A stretch of DNA of 64,000 nt from a phage. The notes beneath the pieces are model-generated. The model made no database searches and had not been told where the DNA came from. It was given only the letters and a program-made list of their open reading frames with translations. Positions 1,373-18,264 of the stretch are shown here, one piece after another. Location: the sequence record PZ738962.1; one strand, 5' to 3'. A program made the position numbers and the translations under genes. Each line of letters starts with the position of its first letter. The first letter of the stretch is position 1.

Positions 1373-1380
1373 TATAAATA
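1373..1380 (+). promoter_or_regulatory. T4-type late promoter TATAAATA upstream of gene 34
   Basis: exact TATAAATA about 29 nt before the gene 34 ATG, followed by AAGGAG. Confidence 0.6.
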
Positions 1381-6484: not shown

Positions 6485-6492
6485 TATAAATA
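6485..6492 (+). promoter_or_regulatory. T4-type late promoter TATAAATA upstream of gene 36
   Basis: exact TATAAATA 34 nt before the gene 36 ATG. Confidence 0.6.
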
Positions 6493-6525: not shown

Positions 6526-8016
6526 ATGGCAGATTTGAAATATGGATCTACTGTAGGTGGATCTCCCATTTGGACGCAAGGAAACTTGACGATCCAGCCA
6601 GCAGGGGATCAGCTTTTCTACAAAGGTCATAAAATCTATACCGCTTTTGATAGACCTTCGGCTACCGATTTTGATGCTGTTAGTGCATCCGAAGGTGGCA
6701 CATTTCAAAAGCAAGTTCATTTCGAGGAAGGTTTAAGCGTAGGTAGCGCATCGGCAGGTGAAACCAAAAAGAATGGTATCTTTAAAGGTCAGAGCGACGC
6801 TGCTAATTTTGACGGCGTAAGCTGGGGTTTGCATTCATGGAAGTCAATCGGCTTTGTTAATGCCCGTGATGGCGTTATTATGGCGTATATTGACACCACA
6901 ACGGGCGAATTTAAGTCTAAAGGGACTATCGAAGGGACAACCATTAAAGACACAGGTCAACGCGTCTATAGCCCTGTTAATAAACCAACGAATAATGATT
7001 TGGATTTAGTTTCCCGTCGCGGTGATACTCTCTCAGGAACGTATAATTTAAACACTGTCACTGTTAAACTATCGGTTGATTCGAAATTAATTGCAAGGGA
7101 ACGTGATTTAATTAATTTTGATGCGACTAAGATCTATTATGGTAACGTTCTTGATACGTTGGTCTTCCGAAGTAAAGATGAGCCTACCATTTTTGTTAAT
7201 GGCAAAGAAGGTCGTTTTTATCACACCAACAATAAACCAACTAAAGCCGATGTTGGGCTAGGCAATGTCACCAATGATGCACAGGTTAAACGTGCTGGTG
7301 ATATTATGGAAGGTAACTTGCAAGCGCCTAGAATGTTGGCGACAAACGATCCTGCTGGTCCTAATGAATTGGTTCGTTTGAGCTACTTTGAGAGAAAATC
7401 AATGGTAGCAAATCCAACCATCATTGGAAACGTTGATTGGAACACTCTTATTAATCGCGGTATCTATCGTGTGGAAAATGCTGGGTCGGGTACTAATAAA
7501 CCGTCTGATAGCTATTATAATGGCGTTTTGATGGTATATCGCCCAGAAGATGCGGTCGGTACTCGTCGAATTGTTCAGGTGTATTATCCTGAATCTATTG
7601 ACCATCCGATGTGCTGGCGTTCGTGTTCTAATGAATCATGGACTGCATGGAACTATGTAGATCACCGTAAATTAGCCGATATTCGCTATGTTAACGTAAC
7701 TGGCGATACCATGACAGGACCGTTAACTGTTCCGGCTGCAAACGGTGTTAGAACGGCTATAGGTGCATATAATGGTGATAACTACTATGCTGGGTTAAAT
7801 AGTGCCGATGGCACGGCTATGATTCACCGTATCAGCGATATTAAAGCCACTGAAAAATTGGGTATTACACATGATTCGAAAGCTGTTTTCGTTAAATCGC
7901 GTGGAAATACTCAAGCCACAGACCGCTATGAACTTTACCACGAAGGGCATAAACCTACCCCTGCCGAAGTTGGAGCGGTTCCACTTAATGCGGTGATTGA
8001 TTTTGGTACTTTCTAA
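6526..8016 (+). CDS. 36: long tail fibre distal connector gp36 (extended relative to T4)
   Basis: 496 aa; N-terminus MADLKYGSTVGGSPIWTQGN matches T4 gp36 start as recalled; T4 protein is much shorter. Confidence 0.8.
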   Translation: MADLKYGSTVGGSPIWTQGNLTIQPAGDQLFYKGHKIYTAFDRPSATDFDAVSASEGGTFQKQVHFEEGLSVGSASAGETKKNGIFKGQSDAANFDGVSWGLHSWKSIGFVNARDGVIMAYIDTTTGEFKSKGTIEGTTIKDTGQRVYSPVNKPTNNDLDLVSRRGDTLSGTYNLNTVTVKLSVDSKLIARERDLINFDATKIYYGNVLDTLVFRSKDEPTIFVNGKEGRFYHTNNKPTKADVGLGNVTNDAQVKRAGDIMEGNLQAPRMLATNDPAGPNELVRLSYFERKSMVANPTIIGNVDWNTLINRGIYRVENAGSGTNKPSDSYYNGVLMVYRPEDAVGTRRIVQVYYPESIDHPMCWRSCSNESWTAWNYVDHRKLADIRYVNVTGDTMTGPLTVPAANGVRTAIGAYNGDNYYAGLNSADGTAMIHRISDIKATEKLGITHDSKAVFVKSRGNTQATDRYELYHEGHKPTPAEVGAVPLNAVIDFGTF

Positions 8017-11344: not shown

Positions 11345-12001
11345 ATGCAAGTTTCTGAAAAAGAGAAAGACTTTGCTATCTCAAATGTCCTGCGCGCTAT
11401 TTTCACAACTAAAAGCACGGAGTTGCTCGTACTTCGTGTTTTTGCTGCCGTCGTGTTGTCCATATTAGCATTTGTCGTTTATAGTAAAAACGAGTTATTT
11501 GCGCTTTATAAAGAGACTCGTTATGAGACTTATGCTCACGTTCTCCAGGTAGAGAAAGACCGCAATTTTGATAATGCAGCACAGGAGCAGTTACAGATAG
11601 TTCATGTGTCGGCTGATGCCGATTTTTCTGCTGTTTTTAGCTTTCGTCCGAAAAACCTAAACTATTTTGTTGATTTGGTGGCATATGAAGGAAAGCTACC
11701 GCATACGATCGATGAAAAGAATTTAGGCGGGTTCCCTATCAATAAAACGAGTGAAGAATATCGTAGGCATCTTTTAGGTAAATCATATTTTACCGATAAA
11801 GATTTCCAGTATATTCCATCGAGGGAGAAAAAATTAGAGAATATCGATATAGGGTTTATGTATTCTTGTCCTATATTCAATCTCGATAATGTCTATTCTG
11901 GTAGTATCGCCATTGCATGGAAGAATAAACCGGATATTGACATTGAGAATTTGGATACTCTTTGCAATCAATCTGCCAGAATCCTCGGAAGGATTAGATA
12001 A
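11345..12001 (+). CDS. t: holin (lysis inhibition-sensitive T holin)
   Basis: 218 aa; strong similarity to T4 T as recalled (LEQLQIVHVSADADFSAVFSFRPKNLNYFVDLVAYEGKLP, FMYSCPIFNLDNVYSG, ARILGR). Confidence 0.9.
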   Translation: MQVSEKEKDFAISNVLRAIFTTKSTELLVLRVFAAVVLSILAFVVYSKNELFALYKETRYETYAHVLQVEKDRNFDNAAQEQLQIVHVSADADFSAVFSFRPKNLNYFVDLVAYEGKLPHTIDEKNLGGFPINKTSEEYRRHLLGKSYFTDKDFQYIPSREKKLENIDIGFMYSCPIFNLDNVYSGSIAIAWKNKPDIDIENLDTLCNQSARILGRIR

Positions 12002-12006
12002 CTTAA

Positions 12007-12040
12007 AGGGGAAGCCTTTCGGCCTCCCCTTCTTTTTTAT
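12007..12040. terminator. terminator hairpin at the convergence point of plus-strand late module and minus-strand early genes
   Basis: AGGGGAAGCC-TTTC-GGCCTCCCCT followed by TCTTTTTTA on plus strand; minus-strand gene 12037..12285 ends adjacent. Confidence 0.55.
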
Positions 12041-12285
12041 TGGCGCATAGAAGCCCCTGAATCACATTTTGACGCTGTATGATGAAAACAGGTAGCGTAC
12101 CAGTCATCGGCTTGTTTGTCTTCGTCAGAAAACGCGTAATTTCGTTGTATGCCGTTTTCTACTTTGACCAGCGCAATAGCTGTTTCTGGAAGATCAATCA
12201 ATCGGACAAAATCGCCATCTTCCCATTCTACACGAGCAATATCATAACCCATCTCAAAGTATACAATCGCTTGTTCTAATTTCAT
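12037..12285 (-). CDS. hypothetical small protein, possible DUF2829 (Tad2-like) fold
   Basis: 82 aa; pattern M-x-L-E-Q-A-I...G-x-x-I-A-R-x-x-W...DDW resembles DUF2829 N- and C-terminal motifs from memory; start overlaps upstream stop (ATGA). Confidence 0.5.
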   Translation of the reverse strand: MKLEQAIVYFEMGYDIARVEWEDGDFVRLIDLPETAIALVKVENGIQRNYAFSDEDKQADDWYATCFHHTASKCDSGASMRQ

Positions 12286-12593
12286 TCTGGAAACTTCCCG
12301 TAAATGTTCTCTGCCAACATACGCGCATCGCTAATGATATCTTTCATGCTATGACCGTAGTGTTCAGCCATTGAGTTGACACAATCAACAAAGAAATTAT
12401 AACGGCGACGGTTTAAGATTTCTTCTCTGCTATAGTTTTCATATTTGACGGTCGAGTGTGCTTTCTCGATTGCCTTGATTGCTATATTGACTTCATTGAT
12501 AATGGTTTTAGCATTGTATGCGCCACGACGGATCAGGATATTTGTCAATTCTCTTGCAATATCTTGCAATTCTTCATATTCATGTTCAAACAT
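12282..12593 (-). CDS. hypothetical protein (103 aa from ATG; track ORF extends to a TTG at 12614)
   Basis: ATG at 12593 preceded by GAGGT; coupled to downstream gene. Confidence 0.5.
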   Translation of the reverse strand: MFEHEYEELQDIARELTNILIRRGAYNAKTIINEVNIAIKAIEKAHSTVKYENYSREEILNRRRYNFFVDCVNSMAEHYGHSMKDIISDARMLAENIYGKFPE

Positions 12594-12617
12594 AATCAAC
12601 CTCGCAAAATACAATCC

Positions 12618-12950
12618 TTACAGATGAAAACCTGTTACGATCACCGCATCGATCTTACCGCTAGGAATAAACGGTTCGCCCTCTTTTATTTCAACTTTGA
12701 ATTGATGCCATTTCGCTAATACTTCTTCCGGTACACCCAGCGATTCGGCGTCTGCTTTAGTTTCATCCATAATCCAACTAGGCTGCATGAGAGCATAGTT
12801 TACATAGTCCATTTCTGGGGTCATGTCATCAATGTTAATATATTTGCAGTTGACGCGTTTCAGAATTTCAAATTCTTTATTGTCAACCTGTACCATGTAT
12901 AATTCAGTAGTTTCTGGAATCAGTTCCCACACAATCAGTACATTTTTCAT
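12618..12950 (-). CDS. hypothetical protein (110 aa)
   Basis: ATG with GTGAGGTG upstream; no family recognised. Confidence 0.55.
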   Translation of the reverse strand: MKNVLIVWELIPETTELYMVQVDNKEFEILKRVNCKYINIDDMTPEMDYVNYALMQPSWIMDETKADAESLGVPEEVLAKWHQFKVEIKEGEPFIPSGKIDAVIVTGFHL

Positions 12951-12958
12951 AGTTCACC

Positions 12959-13327
12959 TCACTTAACAAAGATTTTCTTTAATGCTTTCAGGATCGTTGC
13001 TTCCGGCGCTTCTTCCGGTGGAGGAAGCAATTCTACCACTTCCTCTTCCAACTCGATATAGTCTACCAGATATTCTACATAGAATGCAAGTGCTTCCATG
13101 AAATTAGATGCTACATCCGATTCACCACAAGCGCCTACATGCATTGTATAAACATCACTGCGATCAAGTTTGTGGATGCTTCCCAGATAGTTTCGGTTAT
13201 ACCAGACTTCCCACACTTTCAGCTTTCCGGTTTTGGTTGCTGTTTTATAATCGGTTTCGTAATGATGCAATTGACGTTGCAAATCATTGATAATAACACA
13301 TTTTTCGTAATTGTTTTGAATTTCCAT
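12959..13327 (-). CDS. hypothetical protein (122 aa)
   Basis: ATG with TGAGGATTACATC upstream; acidic C-terminus. Confidence 0.55.
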   Translation of the reverse strand: MEIQNNYEKCVIINDLQRQLHHYETDYKTATKTGKLKVWEVWYNRNYLGSIHKLDRSDVYTMHVGACGESDVASNFMEALAFYVEYLVDYIELEEEVVELLPPPEEAPEATILKALKKIFVK

Positions 13328-13337
13328 GATGTAATCC

Positions 13338-13529
13338 TCACTTATCGTTAAGAAGTTCTAAAACTTTCTGTCGTACTTTGTCAATATTAGTTGATTCAAA
13401 AACTGTACGGTATCCCCAGCTTTGACCGTATGATCGCGAGCAATCCCCATATCCCCATTGTTCAACCTGATAGTATTCAAGGAATGGGTGCTGCCGAACT
13501 ATGATACCATCGCGATTAAAAATTACCAT
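13338..13529 (-). CDS. hypothetical small protein (63 aa from ATG)
   Basis: ATG at 13529 preceded by GTGAGGATTAATATT; track start at 13544 is GTG. Confidence 0.45.
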   Translation of the reverse strand: MVIFNRDGIIVRQHPFLEYYQVEQWGYGDCSRSYGQSWGYRTVFESTNIDKVRQKVLELLNDK

Positions 13530-13553
13530 AATATTAATCCTCACGTCAACAAC

Positions 13554-13841
13554 TTATTTTCGGTTGTGGTCACGATATGTTTTAAAATATCCCTCGTACC
13601 ACGGTAAAATATCTGGATTTTTACCACTATACAGACCTTTAACCATCATGTCAATAAGGCCATCTGGTGTTTGATAGTTTCCAGCTTTTATAAGCTCTCT
13701 GATTAAAATCTCTCTGTATATGTCTTTCGGATCTTCGTAATCAACTTGTATTGTGGTTGTTGTCTCGCTTAATTTGGTTTCTGGAGTATCTTGCATCGCC
13801 TTCCACCAATCTTTTGTAATCTTCATGTTATTGAATTGCAT
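13554..13841 (-). CDS. hypothetical protein (95 aa)
   Basis: ATG with AAGAGGTTAAATT upstream. Confidence 0.5.
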   Translation of the reverse strand: MQFNNMKITKDWWKAMQDTPETKLSETTTTIQVDYEDPKDIYREILIRELIKAGNYQTPDGLIDMMVKGLYSGKNPDILPWYEGYFKTYRDHNRK

Positions 13842-13852
13842 AATTTAACCTC

Positions 13853-14611
13853 TTACTTGCAAACGTATTGATCTACATCAATTGCTCCACCGAATGTAGG
13901 ATGACGTTTTTCAAATCGAATAGTTCCGTCGTTTGGTTCGAAAACGGAGTATTCATATAGATCTTTCTTGCCAACATTCTTATAAAACCCGCCTTTAGTC
14001 ATAACGGTTTCTTGTACGTTTGCTTTGTGTACGTTGTATTCATCAATGTATACAAAATCAACCATCTTCCCATTTTTAATGGTTACTTTAAGATCCCCTG
14101 GCTGGTTTCCATATTTTGCATACAGTGGAGCCTCTTTAATTTTTGTGGAAATTCCATCTTTCATACTCCACTCATAACGAACGGTGCATTGATAGGTCAA
14201 AGTTTCGACCTTCGGTTCTTCTACCACTTTTGCCTCCTGTTTCGGTTGTTCTTCTTCAACCTTCGCAGAAGTCTCTGAATCGCTTTCTGACGCGGTTTCT
14301 TCTTTAGGTAATACATTCATCAAGTTTTGGATTTGAGCGTTATATACAGCCTCCAGTGGCTGAATCTGCCCGATATTGATCATTGTATCACGAACAGTTT
14401 TATTCCAGTTTCGTTGCTCTTGTTTCAGAGACGGATCAATCTTAACAGCCTTAACATATACTTCATGAAGTTTAGAGTCCAGTGCGGAGATAGACTCATT
14501 AGCACAAATAAACTTCTCTGATTTGGTAGTAGCTTTAGCGCAATCAAAGGACGCAGCGTTAGCACCGAAAGCAGTAGCAGAAAGAACGATAGCAGCGATA
14601 ATGTTTTTCAT
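13853..14611 (-). CDS. secreted protein with N-terminal DUF1311 (LprI-like) domain
   Basis: 252 aa; signal peptide MKNIIAAIVLSATAFGANA; FDCAKATTKSEKFICANESISALDSKLHEVY...QRNW matches DUF1311 Cys pattern; acidic linker; C-terminal domain with two Cys. Confidence 0.6.
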   Translation of the reverse strand: MKNIIAAIVLSATAFGANAASFDCAKATTKSEKFICANESISALDSKLHEVYVKAVKIDPSLKQEQRNWNKTVRDTMINIGQIQPLEAVYNAQIQNLMNVLPKEETASESDSETSAKVEEEQPKQEAKVVEEPKVETLTYQCTVRYEWSMKDGISTKIKEAPLYAKYGNQPGDLKVTIKNGKMVDFVYIDEYNVHKANVQETVMTKGGFYKNVGKKDLYEYSVFEPNDGTIRFEKRHPTFGGAIDVDQYVCK

Positions 14612-14645
14612 AATATATTCCTCAGTGTTTTGTCTTGATGGGAGT

Positions 14646-14674
14646 ATGTTACTACTCCCTTAATCCGGTGTCAA
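14646..14674 (-). promoter_or_regulatory. PeSL-type early promoter (TTGACA-N17-TAACAT) with GGGAGTA/TACTCCC stem-loop
   Basis: minus-strand TTGACA, 17-bp spacer, -10-like hexamer; inverted repeat spans spacer and -10; drives 13853..14611. Confidence 0.55.
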
Positions 14675-14685
14675 CTACTTTTAAA

Positions 14686-14985
14686 TTATTTTCGCCATTC
14701 ACCGGAAACAATAAAGTTTGTAAAGTGATCGTGGTCCATGATAACGTCATTAAGTACCATATGTGGATACACTTTAGTGATAATTTTACTAAGTACCATA
14801 TGCGGATATGCTTTAGTGTAATCACGTTTACGATCAGTCATCCAGTCAACGAAAGTTGGTGCAAAGTACGGTACACCGTCAGACGATGCCATATTAAACC
14901 CTTTATCAACCATAAATGCAGCCGCCCTAAGATTTTTAATTGAAGTAGTGCGACTAATTTCAAAAACTTTATCGGTAAAATTCAT
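14686..14985 (-). CDS. hypothetical protein (99 aa from ATG) containing an internal 39-bp tandem repeat
   Basis: ATG at 14985; contains KAYPHMVLS...KVYPHMVLN repeat encoded by imperfect direct repeat 14751..14822. Confidence 0.45.
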   Translation of the reverse strand: MNFTDKVFEISRTTSIKNLRAAAFMVDKGFNMASSDGVPYFAPTFVDWMTDRKRDYTKAYPHMVLSKIITKVYPHMVLNDVIMDHDHFTNFIVSGEWRK

Positions 14986-14986
14986 T

Positions 14987-15196
14987 TTAAGCCCCCGCTC
15001 GTGCATTAATACGCATTTTCTGTATAGCCATGATCTGGTTTACTGCTTCTTCTTTACGTTCTTGCGTGATAATGTGACCAGATTCCGCAAACTCTCCAGC
15101 AACTTCTTCTACGATCTCGCGAACTTGAGAACGTCCAAAGATGCGGTTTCCTTCGTAGCTCATAAACTCTGTTACTACTTGCTCGATAGATTTCAT
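14987..15196 (-). CDS. hypothetical small protein (69 aa)
   Basis: ATG preceded by GGAGAATCAC leader of a PeSL cassette. Confidence 0.55.
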   Translation of the reverse strand: MKSIEQVVTEFMSYEGNRIFGRSQVREIVEEVAGEFAESGHIITQERKEEAVNQIMAIQKMRINARAGA

Positions 15197-15225
15197 GTGA
15201 TTCTCCTTTCGTTTGGTATGGGAGT

Positions 15226-15254
15226 ATGTTACTACTCCCTTATCTTTACGTCAA
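15226..15254 (-). promoter_or_regulatory. PeSL-type early promoter (TTGACG-N17-TAACAT) with GGGAGTA/TACTCCC stem-loop
   Basis: same architecture and near-identical sequence as copy at 14646; drives 14987..15196. Confidence 0.55.
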
Positions 15255-15261
15255 CTAGTTT

Positions 15262-15504
15262 TTAGAAATTTTTCGCTTCTTCTTCGGTCATCATCACCGC
15301 GCATTCGTGCATAACTTTGAAAACCGGGTCAATCATATCGAATGCTTCGCTGGACAGTTTACGAGAAGCGATTTTGATTGCTTCAACGTCTTCTACTACA
15401 GGAACAAAAACAGTTTTCAGTTCGTCGAGCACGGCAGCTTCTTTTTCATTCAGGAAGATCCCAGCGTCGTACAGTGCAACTTCGATAACATTAACTTTAA
15501 CCAT
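15262..15504 (-). CDS. hypothetical small acidic protein (80 aa from ATG)
   Basis: ATG at 15504 preceded by GGAGGAAATAAAA; longer track ORF would run through the promoter. Confidence 0.5.
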   Translation of the reverse strand: MVKVNVIEVALYDAGIFLNEKEAAVLDELKTVFVPVVEDVEAIKIASRKLSSEAFDMIDPVFKVMHECAVMMTEEEAKNF

Positions 15505-15538
15505 TTTTATTTCCTCCAGTTCGTTTCGGTATGGGAGT

Positions 15539-15567
15539 ATAATACTACCGATGACCTTTGGCGTCAA
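15539..15567 (-). promoter_or_regulatory. PeSL-type early promoter (TTGACG-N17-TATTAT), degenerate stem-loop
   Basis: TTGACG, 17-bp spacer, TATTAT; conserved leader ACTCCCATACC...GGAGG; drives 15262..15504. Confidence 0.5.
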
Positions 15568-15769
15568 CTGCTTTTTTATTATTTTCGTGAAAATTTTTCG
15601 TCGCCTCATGTGCTTTTCGCTGGGCTTCTTGTTGTGCTTGCTGGCGTGCTGCCTCTTGTGAAGCCATAACGGAAGCATTTGCAGCAGTTACAGCCGCTAC
15701 CATCGCTGCGGTATTAGCATTTACAGTACATGCACTAGCCAGCAAAGCAATTGCAATCATTTTCTTCAT
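15545..15769 (-). CDS. small secreted or lipoprotein-like protein (74 aa)
   Basis: N-terminal signal-like MKKMIAIALLASACT then Ala/Gln-rich low-complexity region; ATG with AAGGGGAAAC upstream. Confidence 0.45.
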   Translation of the reverse strand: MKKMIAIALLASACTVNANTAAMVAAVTAANASVMASQEAARQQAQQEAQRKAHEATKNFHENNKKAVDAKGHR

Positions 15770-15936
15770 AGTTTCCCCTTTAGGTTATCTTCGACCTTCA
15801 CCCATTCCGCGTATTCTTGCGCGGCTACTTTCGGATTTAGTCCGTCTTCGTACATTGCTTCAAGTAATTCTTCGTCGGTGGGCTTATACCCTAGATAAGC
15901 CTTCACCTGATTTTTCCAAATTTTATACCAGTTCAT
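15766..15936 (-). CDS. hypothetical small protein (56 aa from ATG)
   Basis: ATG at 15936 immediately after upstream stop (TGATAATATG). Confidence 0.4.
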   Translation of the reverse strand: MNWYKIWKNQVKAYLGYKPTDEELLEAMYEDGLNPKVAAQEYAEWVKVEDNLKGKL

Positions 15937-15940
15937 ATTA

Positions 15941-16213
15941 TCACCAGTCAAGAGCGCGTGTCTCTGCGTCTTCCCATGCTTGATCCATAACAGCCTTGAA
16001 AACATATTCTAAAGTATCATCTTTAGAGAATCCGAAGACCTTAGACGGAATATCTTCAATTGCTACTCCCGCGACTTCTGCATTACGCGCTTGGCAATAA
16101 TGCAACTCTAAGTTATCGAGATAGCGACCGCCTAATTTCTCCATATCATCCCAGCATTTCCAGTAACCTACTTTATTTGCAATCGCTAACACCTTGCTGT
16201 TTTCGTTGTTCAT
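15941..16213 (-). CDS. hypothetical protein (90 aa from ATG)
   Basis: ATG at 16213 preceded by GGAGAATCAAAG leader. Confidence 0.5.
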   Translation of the reverse strand: MNNENSKVLAIANKVGYWKCWDDMEKLGGRYLDNLELHYCQARNAEVAGVAIEDIPSKVFGFSKDDTLEYVFKAVMDQAWEDAETRALDW

Positions 16214-16244
16214 CTTTGATTCTCCTTTTGTTTGGTATGTGTGT

Positions 16245-16273
16245 ATTATGCAATGATGGATTTGTGAAGTCAA
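16245..16273 (-). promoter_or_regulatory. PeSL-type early promoter (TTGACT-N17-CATAAT)
   Basis: TTGACT, 17-bp spacer, CATAAT, conserved ACACACATACCAAAC...GGAGAATCA leader; drives 15941..16213. Confidence 0.55.
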
Positions 16274-16280
16274 CAACTTT

Positions 16281-16314
16281 TTAAAATAAAAAAGCCGACC
16301 ACACGGATCGGCTT
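16281..16314 (-). terminator. intrinsic terminator (minus strand) after gene 16324..16719
   Basis: hairpin AAGCCGATCC-GTGT-GGTCGGCTT followed by U-run on minus strand; near-identical to the plus-strand terminator at 6335. Confidence 0.6.
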
Positions 16315-16323
16315 AATAATCAG

Positions 16324-16719
16324 TTACTTACTAAATTTCTTTTTGGCTTCGTCTACCGCATGAGATGCCAGTACCGCAGCCGCATGTGCACTTTTATCTG
16401 TGTTGCAGAGAACGCCCAGATAAACATCACGCCAAAGTTTAATCATCTCGTAGATCATATCAATATCATTTTCTTGTTTGTTGGCGATGCTATTCGTCGT
16501 TATCTGGTAAGGTAACGGCTTGATCTGTACTGGTTCCGCCATCGGGCTAATCGGTTTCGGATCAGTCATAATAGGTGCTGTTGTGGGTGGTGTTTTCCAT
16601 ACGTCATTATTCCACGGTTTAATCGTTGTATCGTAAAGTTTATAAGGATTTTTGTCTGGATTAACCATCCAGGCATGATGAGTACCCAAACCATTTGAAG
16701 TGATGCGTCGTTCAGTCAT
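16324..16719 (-). CDS. hypothetical protein (131 aa)
   Basis: ATG with GGAGGGAAAGT upstream; Pro/Thr-rich middle region. Confidence 0.55.
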   Translation of the reverse strand: MTERRITSNGLGTHHAWMVNPDKNPYKLYDTTIKPWNNDVWKTPPTTAPIMTDPKPISPMAEPVQIKPLPYQITTNSIANKQENDIDMIYEMIKLWRDVYLGVLCNTDKSAHAAAVLASHAVDEAKKKFSK

Positions 16720-16915
16720 ACTTTCCCTCCAAAAATTCTTTCATCAAATAGTCTATCGTTGCTCTGTGTTCTGGTGTGTTTGTTATCTCTGCTAACTTAT
16801 TCAGAGATTCAATAGTGATCCGGTTGGCTTCTTCCATAGTCTCAACGACCATTGGCACAATCTTTTTATTGTTGTACACAAATGCAATATAACCGCCTTC
16901 TGGATATTCTTTCAT
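16712..16915 (-). CDS. hypothetical small protein (67 aa from ATG)
   Basis: ATG at 16915 preceded by AAGAAGGG; directly upstream of gene 52 stop. Confidence 0.45.
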   Translation of the reverse strand: MKEYPEGGYIAFVYNNKKIVPMVVETMEEANRITIESLNKLAEITNTPEHRATIDYLMKEFLEGKYD

Positions 16916-16917
16916 AA

Positions 16918-18264
16918 TCAACCCTTCTTAAGTTCTTTAAGATCTTTCTTATATTCCTTCATTGCGGTCGTCTTTGTCCAATACTCATATTCACTATGAT
17001 GTTTATCGGAATCTTTGACCAGTCGATCATACTCTTCTTGAGTAACGCTATACAATGGCATAGAAACTAGCTTATCGGCGTATGGACGCAGTTTTTCATG
17101 TCCATTGATGGATTGCATTACCTCGGCCTTTTTCTTGCCCTGTAGCTCGATTTCGCCCTTAATTACGCGGTCGATAAATTCAGCTTTAGCCATTGCATAA
17201 TTGTATGCTTCCAGTGTTTCCGCTTGCATCAATTCAATGCGTTTATCGACATACCCTAATCGGATTTCGACGAATCGACGGATCAGATCGCTCGCTTTCT
17301 CGAATACTTCAACTAAACCACGTTCATTAACCACTACGATATTCTGGGCTACTAACTGCGTTAGTTTAAAATCCTTCATGATTTGCTCATGTCGAGCGGA
17401 TTCATCTTCGCTTTTGAAATAATCGCGTTTCAGTGTTACTTCAAATCTGAATCCGTCCTTAGAGCAACGGTCATTATACGATACAATCAGATCTTTTTCT
17501 TCCAGTGCATCAAGTACCGCTACATATTCTTCACGGTCGAACTTATAAGGAACTTCTGATATTGTCAGCTTAGTCTTGCCGTTTAGTTCATATGTACCCT
17601 CAAGAATCACACCATCGCGATCATCTCGCGGGATAACTTTACCCGTGAATTTCGGGAATTGAACACTAGGTTCTTTATCCAGTTTTCCGGCAAGTGCTAG
17701 CTCTGTGCATTCAATGAGGCTTTCCAGTGAATGCGGTAAAATGTCAGTTTTATACCCTGTAGCAATACCACTAATACCATTAGCCAATACCATTGGCACA
17801 ACTGGCAAGTAGAACGCTGGCGGGATGTGTTCCAGATCTTCGTGCTTGGGTGCGCAATTCATATCTTTATAGATTTTAAAGAAGTTTTCATGCACGCGAG
17901 CAAAGATATAACGTGCCGCACCTGCTTTCTGGACTAAACGCGATCCGAAGTTACCTTGACCGTCAAGCAGTGGAGTATTATTGCTCCATGTATTCGCCAT
18001 AAGTGATCCGGCTTCTACGGCATTAGTTTCCCCGTGGTGATAACCCAACTCGGCAACACCAGATCCAATATCTGCCATCTTACGGAATTTCTTACGGTCG
18101 CCTTTACTCTTTTGCAAAGCACATTCCATAACAAAGCGTTGCACTGGTTTAAGCCCATCTACTAATTGAGGAATCCCGCGTTCCTCGGCAGAATAGATCG
18201 CATATTCCTTAGCTTCATTATGTACAATGCTTTCAAGGCTGCGGTAAGTAACTGATTTATTCAT
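16918..18264 (-). CDS. 52: DNA topoisomerase II medium subunit gp52 (GyrA-like)
   Basis: GyrA signature DGLKPVQRF and long similarity to T4 gp52 as recalled; start set to ATG at 18264 (GAGGTG upstream) to match T4 N-terminus. Confidence 0.9.
   Translation of the reverse strand: MNKSVTYRSLESIVHNEAKEYAIYSAEERGIPQLVDGLKPVQRFVMECALQKSKGDRKKFRKMADIGSGVAELGYHHGETNAVEAGSLMANTWSNNTPLLDGQGNFGSRLVQKAGAARYIFARVHENFFKIYKDMNCAPKHEDLEHIPPAFYLPVVPMVLANGISGIATGYKTDILPHSLESLIECTELALAGKLDKEPSVQFPKFTGKVIPRDDRDGVILEGTYELNGKTKLTISEVPYKFDREEYVAVLDALEEKDLIVSYNDRCSKDGFRFEVTLKRDYFKSEDESARHEQIMKDFKLTQLVAQNIVVVNERGLVEVFEKASDLIRRFVEIRLGYVDKRIELMQAETLEAYNYAMAKAEFIDRVIKGEIELQGKKKAEVMQSINGHEKLRPYADKLVSMPLYSVTQEEYDRLVKDSDKHHSEYEYWTKTTAMKEYKKDLKELKKG

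Follow-up and report, generated by a model that had tools for sequence, protein, structure and literature searches.

Background

Tad2 of Bacillus phage SPO1 (PDB 8SME, 8SMF, 8SMG and 8WJE) is the founding anti-Thoeris sponge for 1''-3' gcADPR. In its ligand pocket, W25 and W73 form van der Waals walls, and N26 and D79 touch phosphates and hydroxyls (10.1101/2023.05.01.538930). HgmTad2, or AcrIIA7 (PDB 8KBI-8KBM and 8WJC), also binds gcADPR and possesses a long insertion that binds cyclic dinucleotides (CDN). In this protein each protomer grips the diphosphate with its N22 and G23; binding is lost in the mutants W21A/N22A or S90A/T92A/D93A (10.1101/2023.11.15.567273). MoTad2 from a Myroides odoratus prophage (PDB 8V3E and 9EIB) binds His-ADPR and cUMP/cCMP. 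In a screen of homologues against seven systems, Tad2_80, the sole insertion-less homologue tested so far, was negative with type I Thoeris, type II Thoeris, E. albertii CBASS and Bacillus Pycsar, while transformation with the remaining three systems was not possible (10.1101/2025.08.24.671296, Table S2). Most other non-WNG homologues were also negative, but Tad2_79, with the loop KWSKD, inhibits type I and type IV Thoeris (10.1101/2025.08.24.671296); therefore, a non-canonical loop does not preclude activity.

The Tad2-like gene and its neighbourhood

The window, that is, the whole 64-kb stretch of DNA analysed here, came from a T4-type coliphage resembling RB49 (genus Krischvirus); over the 3 kb around the gene, identity to dozens of such genomes is 93-99%. 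The following features were recognised:

12037..12285, minus strand: Tad2-like coding sequence of 82 aa, stop included (ORF list; equal to RB49ORF253c, AAQ15466.1; Pfam PF11195)
12282..12299, minus strand: translation start region, with an SD-like GGGAAG (12299-12294) 8 nt 5' of the ATG (read from the sequence)
11345..12001, plus strand: holin gene t, the convergent neighbour (tblastn with T4 t, E 3.6e-67; RB49 annotation)
about 12005..12032, either strand: G+C-rich hairpin common to t (plus) and the Tad2-like gene (minus) (RNA folds)
12282..14611, minus strand: six tightly packed, co-oriented ORFs matching function-unknown PHROGs (ORF list, PHROGs), namely 12282-12614, 12618-12950, 12959-13327, 13338-13544, 13554-13841 and 13853-14611
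14646..14674, minus strand: predicted sigma-70-type early promoter, GTTGACA-17-TAACAT, with an A/T-rich stretch upstream (consensus scan)

The gene starts with ATG and has 82 intact codons; its product, MKLEQAIVYFEMGYDIARVEWEDGDFVRLIDLPETAIALVKVENGIQRNYAFSDEDKQADDWYATCFHHTASKCDSGASMRQ, is 100% identical to RB49ORF253c (RB49 155663..155911), which is labelled "hypothetical protein" in GenBank, as is the gene in the annotated Krischvirus records inspected. Its start overlaps the stop of the upstream ORF in an ATGA at 12282-12285. A sequence-only reading of this stretch had described an 82-aa protein with LEQAI, GxxIARxxW and DDW elements, and all of these were found in the predicted product, as L3-E-Q-A-I7, G13-x-x-I-A-R-x-x-W21 and D60-D61-W62. 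An antisense ORF on the plus strand (12079..12279) was dismissed as shadowing the conserved frame of the minus strand.

The same reading had placed the gene directly after the holin terminator, in agreement with the hairpin at about 12005-12032 that separates the stop of t (12001) from the gene, the two stop codons being 35 nt apart. On the plus strand the hairpin had a folding energy of -16.8 kcal/mol and was followed by UUCUUUUUUAUU, and on the minus strand a GAAA loop capped a 12-bp stem (-23.2 kcal/mol, z -3.85). The stop codon of the Tad2-like gene (TAA, 12037-12039) falls within the T-tract of the hairpin. Judging from these folds, the shared hairpin is probably a bidirectional intrinsic terminator.

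The six upstream ORFs and the Tad2-like gene probably constitute one transcription unit. The gene had been taken as the first of the minus-strand block; in the direction of transcription it is the last (3'-most). The site at 14674..14646 corresponds to Pe:158760, an early promoter predicted for RB49 with a score of 38.9 (PMC1524935, additional file 3); of the published predictions, this one is closest to the Tad2-like gene on its 5' side. Since a generic sigma-70 scan was not enriched over shuffles (16 vs 14.6), this promoter assignment relies on its position and the prediction published for RB49. The late-promoter consensus TATAAATA was absent from the minus strand of the window. Two exact sites were observed on the plus strand, at 1373..1380 and 6485..6492, fewer than the shuffled expectation of 4.7, and they were situated just 5' of tail-fibre gene 34 (ORF start 1409) and of an ORF starting at 6526, probably gene 36.

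Two of the upstream ORFs had features of their own. The 252-aa product of 13853..14611, encoded immediately downstream of the operon's predicted early promoter, had a signal-peptide-like N-terminus, MKNIIAAIVLSATAFGANA, and matched Pfam LprI (lysozyme inhibitor) with 26 bits against a threshold of 22, the sole Pfam match among the upstream ORFs; the protein looks secreted or periplasmic. For 12282..12614, the listed TTG start is probably wrong, as the PHROG match begins at Met8. The corresponding region of RB49 (L001, 2734..3504) carries tandem paralogues, ORF255c and ORF254c, both ending in ...DAR..ENI.GKF and separated by a 41-codon ORF. In the window there is a single gene, the 3' part of which matches ORF254c and the 5' part of which is unaligned at the DNA level. 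The window and RB49 thus differ immediately upstream of the Tad2-like gene by about 450 bp, a polymorphism due to an indel or recombination.

Family assignment

The proposed resemblance to DUF2829 was confirmed as more than chance in a search with the Pfam profile PF11195 (Tad2-like, formerly DUF2829), which matched the protein end to end, at profile positions 1-71 of 73, with 27.9 bits (E 3.4e-6) and a gathering score of 25 bits. Two orthologues, P0004 and P0005, independently exceeded this cut-off (26.1 and 25.5 bits). For scale, SPO1 Tad2 scored 85.8 bits; therefore, by profile score the Krischvirus protein is placed as a peripheral member of PF11195. Its similarity to validated Tad2 proteins was weak in other searches. 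A profile built from canonical Tad2 alone gave 9 bits, and hhalign of a shallow four-sequence subfamily profile against ten validated Tad2 proteins gave 54% probability, for the N-terminus only. Searches of PDB sequences with the single sequence and with the four-sequence profile returned nothing at E<=10, so that the link to the solved Tad2 structures rests on Pfam and on the fold. No NCBIfam model matched the protein, nor did any match SPO1 Tad2. In tblastn searches with T4 Acb2, cbTad1 and T4 Vs.3, no match was obtained at the Tad2-like locus or elsewhere in the window. Together with the fold described below, the Pfam match makes membership of the Tad2 family highly probable.

In automated resources, the cluster is already tagged PF11195 and relatives are named "Thoeris anti-defense Tad2". 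No paper connecting this gene, RB49 or Krischvirus with Tad2 or Thoeris was found in a literature search, and the sequence was not found in the portions consulted of the supplementary tables of two Tad2 survey papers. Family, fold and mechanism class are already known, and the Krischvirus protein is an unusually small, divergent new member.

Predicted fold

Two template-free, single-chain AlphaFold2 (AF2) models were built from alignments that excluded canonical Tad2. Mean pLDDT was 76.5 and 81.9, with core blocks at 80-95 in the second model and most of the core exceeding 90, and both models had the same order of elements, alpha1-beta1-beta2-beta3-beta4-alpha3-beta5, followed by a disordered tail. 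The product was accordingly divided as follows:

12085..12285, minus strand: conserved Tad2-like core, residues 1-67 (AF2 models, fold matches, pN/pS), with alpha1 at 3-11, beta1 at 14-18, beta2 at 26-32, beta3 at 36-43, beta4 at 46-49, alpha3 at 54-58 and beta5 at 62-67 (AF2)
12040..12084, minus strand: C-terminal tail, residues 68-82, predicted disordered and unconserved (pLDDT, pN/pS)

In a Foldseek search against the PDB, ranks 1 to 8 were chains of SPO1 and Myroides Tad2 (probability 1.00, TM 0.57-0.62), after which the E-value leapt from 0.08 to 0.9. In BFVD, the top matches, about 30 in number, reached TM values of up to 0.72, and most of the named ones were "Thoeris anti-defense 2-like" or DUF2829. 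The Tad2-like fold suggested by the sequence-only reading was thus recovered by both structure searches, and we regard it with the same high confidence as the family assignment.

Strands beta2 and beta3 were connected by a 3-residue turn in the models, and the alignment gap spans the whole insertion present there in other Tad2 proteins; the beta2-beta3 insertion with helix alpha2 is therefore absent from the Krischvirus protein. The length of this insertion varies across the family and it lies outside the Pfam definition. In SPO1 Tad2, which has about 18% identity to the Krischvirus protein, without a direct sequence match, it comprises about 20 residues and alpha2 forms part of the dimer interface. 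The two proteins are alike in PF11195 membership, in the order of secondary structure elements and in being small and phage-encoded, SPO1 Tad2 being the best Foldseek/PDB match (TM about 0.6), whereas the Krischvirus protein has an extra disordered C-terminal tail, is more acidic (net charge about -8 vs about -3) and belongs to a phage of E. coli rather than Bacillus. HgmTad2 is extended at its N-terminus and builds its CDN pocket from an insertion of 35-41 residues; the Krischvirus protein has neither feature, and since the CDN-pocket insertion is absent, a second pocket of the HgmTad2 kind is not expected. In MoTad2, the insertion builds the A-C interface pocket, a second pocket for cUMP; it is likewise missing here.

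In the AF2 models, pLDDT of the tail was below 50 from residue 69 or 71 to 82. C66, H68, H69 and C74 were considered as a metal site and rejected, as the tail is unconserved and the commonest Krischvirus variant has Tyr in place of C74.

Predicted ligand pocket

Residues were placed in register by a MAFFT alignment with 12 tested Tad2 proteins (SPO1 Tad2, MoTad2, HgmTad2 and homologues; sequences from Table S2 of 10.1101/2025.08.24.671296), with which an independent canonical-Tad2 HMM alignment agreed. Two segments correspond to the ligand-binding region:

12211..12228, minus strand: beta1-beta2 loop E20-W21-E22-D23-G24-D25, counterpart of the canonical ligand loop G-W-N-G-K-G (MAFFT and HMM)
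12118..12138, minus strand: Y50-A-F-S53-D-E55-D56, equivalent to SPO1 W73-V-P-S76-Q-T78-D79 (pocket wall, beta4-alpha3 loop and alpha3; MAFFT and HMM)

Residue by residue, the SPO1 positions correspond as follows:

SPO1 R22: R18, kept
SPO1 W25: W21, kept
SPO1 N26: E22, acidic replacement
SPO1 W73: Y50, aromatic kept
SPO1 S76: S53, kept
SPO1 T78: E55, acidic replacement
SPO1 D79: D56, kept
SPO1 D84-W85: D61-W62, kept

Thus, four of the six gcADPR-contact positions (W25, N26, W73, S76, T78 and D79) are retained, and the phosphate loop has turned acidic: G24 is replaced by E20 and G27 by D23, so that G27/K28 read Asp/Gly. G-W-N-G is invariant in ten validated Tad2 proteins (GWNGKN in SPO1 Tad2 and the canonical WNGKG in MoTad2), whereas the loop E-W-E-D-G-D of the Krischvirus protein carries four carboxylates. 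Y50 and D56 were invariant in three T4-like orthologues; in the wider minimal clade D56 was invariant and Y50 nearly so, W21, Y50, S53 (or Thr) and D56 being the most conserved positions. The DDW element, as aligned, is the counterpart of the C-terminal AEDW85 and is read as a conserved structural motif rather than a ligand contact.

Minimal relatives in Klebsiella phages, prophages and a metagenomic virus

A profile search returned relatives of 71-73 residues, P0009-P0015, of which P0010 is Tad2_80 (73 aa, IMG/VR metagenomic) and P0009 and P0011-P0015 are proteins of Klebsiella phages or prophages. Like the Krischvirus protein, members of this minimal clade are devoid of the beta2-beta3 insertion and have an acidic or non-Asn loop (EWPDDG, DWVDT); the Klebsiella proteins also have Tyr for W73 and the pattern [ST]-D-x-D...DW. 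They differ in sharing only 18-34% identity with it and in lacking the C-terminal tail. Their PF11195 scores (20.7-29.9 bits) lie around the cut-off of 25, P0010 and P0013 passing and P0009 failing.

The gene neighbourhoods of these relatives were also inspected. In the N4-like Klebsiella phage VLCpiP4b (L002, 2953..3159), the gene lies between two tail(spike) genes. In Klebsiella prophages (L008-L010, 6001..6216), it directly follows a tailspike gene, with its start overlapping the tailspike stop, and precedes the holin. Such a late or structural neighbourhood is unexpected for a signal sponge.

Conservation and selection

The Tad2-like gene was intact in 59 of the 59 matching Krischvirus records (97.6-100% identity). 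A phmmer search run exhaustively against 1.84 billion representatives yielded only five true relatives, including two diverged full-length orthologues, P0004 (59%) and P0005 (49%), a fragment and a chimera; an IMG/VR scan with the subfamily profile retrieved Krischvirus copies only. Three long phmmer matches (P0003, P0007 and P0008) were discarded as FN3-like repeat proteins with scores summed from many weak stretches. P0002 was also set aside as a relative, being a chimeric assembly in which the N-terminus of the protein is fused to an antisense frame. In this 83-aa translation from an ENA contig (3785 nt), the Tad2-like protein accounts for residues 1 to about 58 and the remainder is an antisense-frame translation (cf. 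the plus-strand ORF 12079..12279); the public metagenome here contains an assembly chimera with an inverted join.

The genes for P0004 and P0005 are syntenic in two diverged T4-like contigs, where each is convergent with a T-type holin gene; one of the two phages carries a gp38 adhesin and hence belongs to a different T4-like lineage. Among the three orthologous genes, pS was saturated (0.80-0.93) and pN of the core (alignment columns 1-70) was about 0.30, whereas in the last 15 or so codons, which form the tail, pN was about equal to pS. Because it is intact across Krischvirus, syntenic in diverged contigs and has a core pN far below the saturated pS, the gene is real; its core is under purifying selection and its tail is not.

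Possible functions

By analogy with the solved Tad2 proteins, the favoured reading of the Krischvirus protein is an oligomeric sponge for some immune signal, most plausibly of the TIR/Thoeris type, with the ligand uncertain; we give this reading about even chances. It would be expressed early, as the last cistron of an operon read from the predicted promoter at 14674 to the hairpin shared with t. As a minimal Tad2, made up of the alpha1-beta1-beta2-beta3-beta4-alpha3-beta5 core alone and a disordered 15-residue tail, it would most likely oligomerise through helix alpha1 as the solved proteins do, creating inter-subunit pockets. Lined by W21, Y50, S53 and D56, these pockets would take up a small immune signal derived from a nucleotide, the most plausible being an ADP-ribose derivative from a TIR/Thoeris system of Enterobacteriaceae, and would thereby keep the effector from activation. 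Because the phosphate-contacting loop reads EWEDGD and not GWNGKG, the ligand or the mode of diphosphate binding (e.g. via a metal ion) would probably differ from the binding of 3'cADPR by SPO1 Tad2.

Several of the findings count against a sponge and favour a second reading, in which the Tad2 fold no longer binds immune nucleotides and has been repurposed, e.g. for binding a protein or a cationic metabolite, or is a decayed remnant retained for a different reason. The sequence similarity to validated Tad2 is very weak (no PDB match, 54% in hhalign, 9 bits), and the phosphate-binding GWNGKG has given way to an acidic EWEDGD, with four carboxylates in the loop that holds the diphosphate in HgmTad2 and SPO1 Tad2. 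The insertion-less Tad2_80 inhibited none of the four assayable systems, most non-WNG homologues were inactive in the same seven-system screen, and distant Klebsiella relatives are encoded directly after tailspike genes. To these may be added, for a repurposed fold, the net charge and, against a sponge, the replacements N26 to E22 and T78 to E55 and the missing helix alpha2, which contributes to the dimer interface and the second pocket. However, the residues kept invariant or nearly so are those lining the pocket, W21, Y50, S53 (or Thr) and D56, a pattern difficult to account for if there were no pocket; Tad2_79 still inhibits two types of Thoeris; and the negative screens spanned few systems. 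Loss or change of function is thus the less probable of these two readings, yet the strongest competitor of the sponge.

A more specific form of the sponge, which we consider rather unlikely, is that the acidic-loop, insertion-less clade (ORF253c orthologues, Klebsiella proteins and Tad2_80-like proteins) represents a distinct Tad2 branch sequestering a signal that no known Tad2 handles. Candidate signals would then be a cationic ADPR isomer such as N7-cADPR, held in place with no Asn/Gly phosphate clamp, a metal-bridged nucleotide or the messenger of an undescribed defence system of Enterobacteriaceae, and the protein would serve as the principal signal sponge in a phage genus devoid of Acb2 and TadIV-1. 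In tblastn searches of the window together with RB49 50-150 kb, which cover about 96% of a Krischvirus genome, no Acb2 (T4 vs.4), TadIV-1 (T4 vs.3), Tad1 or second Tad2 was detected. In the regB-vs.6 interval of RB49, the unrelated ORFs 095c-097c and nrdC.11 are found instead, and a 57B (Acb1-type) gene is annotated.

Taken literally, the sequence-only reading would mean a canonical sponge against type I Thoeris that binds 3'cADPR (1''-3' gcADPR) like SPO1 Tad2, which is improbable. It accords with membership of the family and fold and with the retention of the key Asp and of the two aromatic walls of the pocket. On the other side, Glu takes the place of N26, and the equivalent Asn is the residue mutated along with Trp in HgmTad2 W21A/N22A, which is binding-deficient; Asp/Gly replace G27/K28, and Glu replaces T78. 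Type I Thoeris was not inhibited by the closest homologue assayed.

The gene had also been noted to lie where T4 has asiA, which is correct, asiA being the first gene convergent with t in T4, where the order from t is asiA, arn, motA and gene 52. In the window, gene 52 is located at about 16942-18243, nothing resembling asiA, arn or motA was found between t and gene 52, and tblastn with T4 AsiA returned nothing in the window at E<1. The interval (12037..16940) instead contains about a dozen small ORFs, all matching function-unknown PHROGs, and has the appearance of a hyperplastic early region. AsiA is an all-helical protein. T4 AsiA and the Krischvirus protein share map position and are similar in size, but have no relationship in sequence or fold. 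A positional and functional replacement of AsiA, i.e., an anti-sigma or transcription factor in the asiA slot, might be envisaged because T4 asiA lies exactly here, convergent with t, and RB49 is without detectable asiA and motA, the latter and middle promoters having been reported absent (PMC1524935). This is very improbable: AsiA appeared neither as sequence similarity nor as a Pfam match nor in the fold searches, the predicted fold is the alpha/beta fold of Tad2, and position weighs little where the whole t-52 interval is non-homologous filler. The asiA position is thus without functional implication.

Finally, that 12037..12285 is a non-functional chance ORF or annotation artefact, as the bare GenBank label of hypothetical protein might suggest, is effectively refuted by the conservation pattern seen in the sequences (an intact frame in all 59 Krischvirus matches, and synteny at 49-59% identity with saturated synonymous sites and pN of 0.30), and also disagrees with the confident folded core of the AF2 model, the SD-like site and the coupling overlap at ATGA.

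Implications

RB49, Phi1, JSE and many isolates considered for therapy are Krischviruses, a group of coliphages in wide use whose anti-defence repertoire is almost unannotated. At about 67 residues, the core of their Tad2-like protein is shorter than any Tad2 homologue active in the screen (80 aa; 10.1101/2025.08.24.671296). The protein thus probes both the minimal scaffold for signal sequestration and the breadth of the ligand range of the family. If inactive, it would mark the limit at which a "Tad2-like" annotation at the Pfam level ceases to predict function; its interest would be higher if the acidic, insertion-less clade has a ligand of its own.
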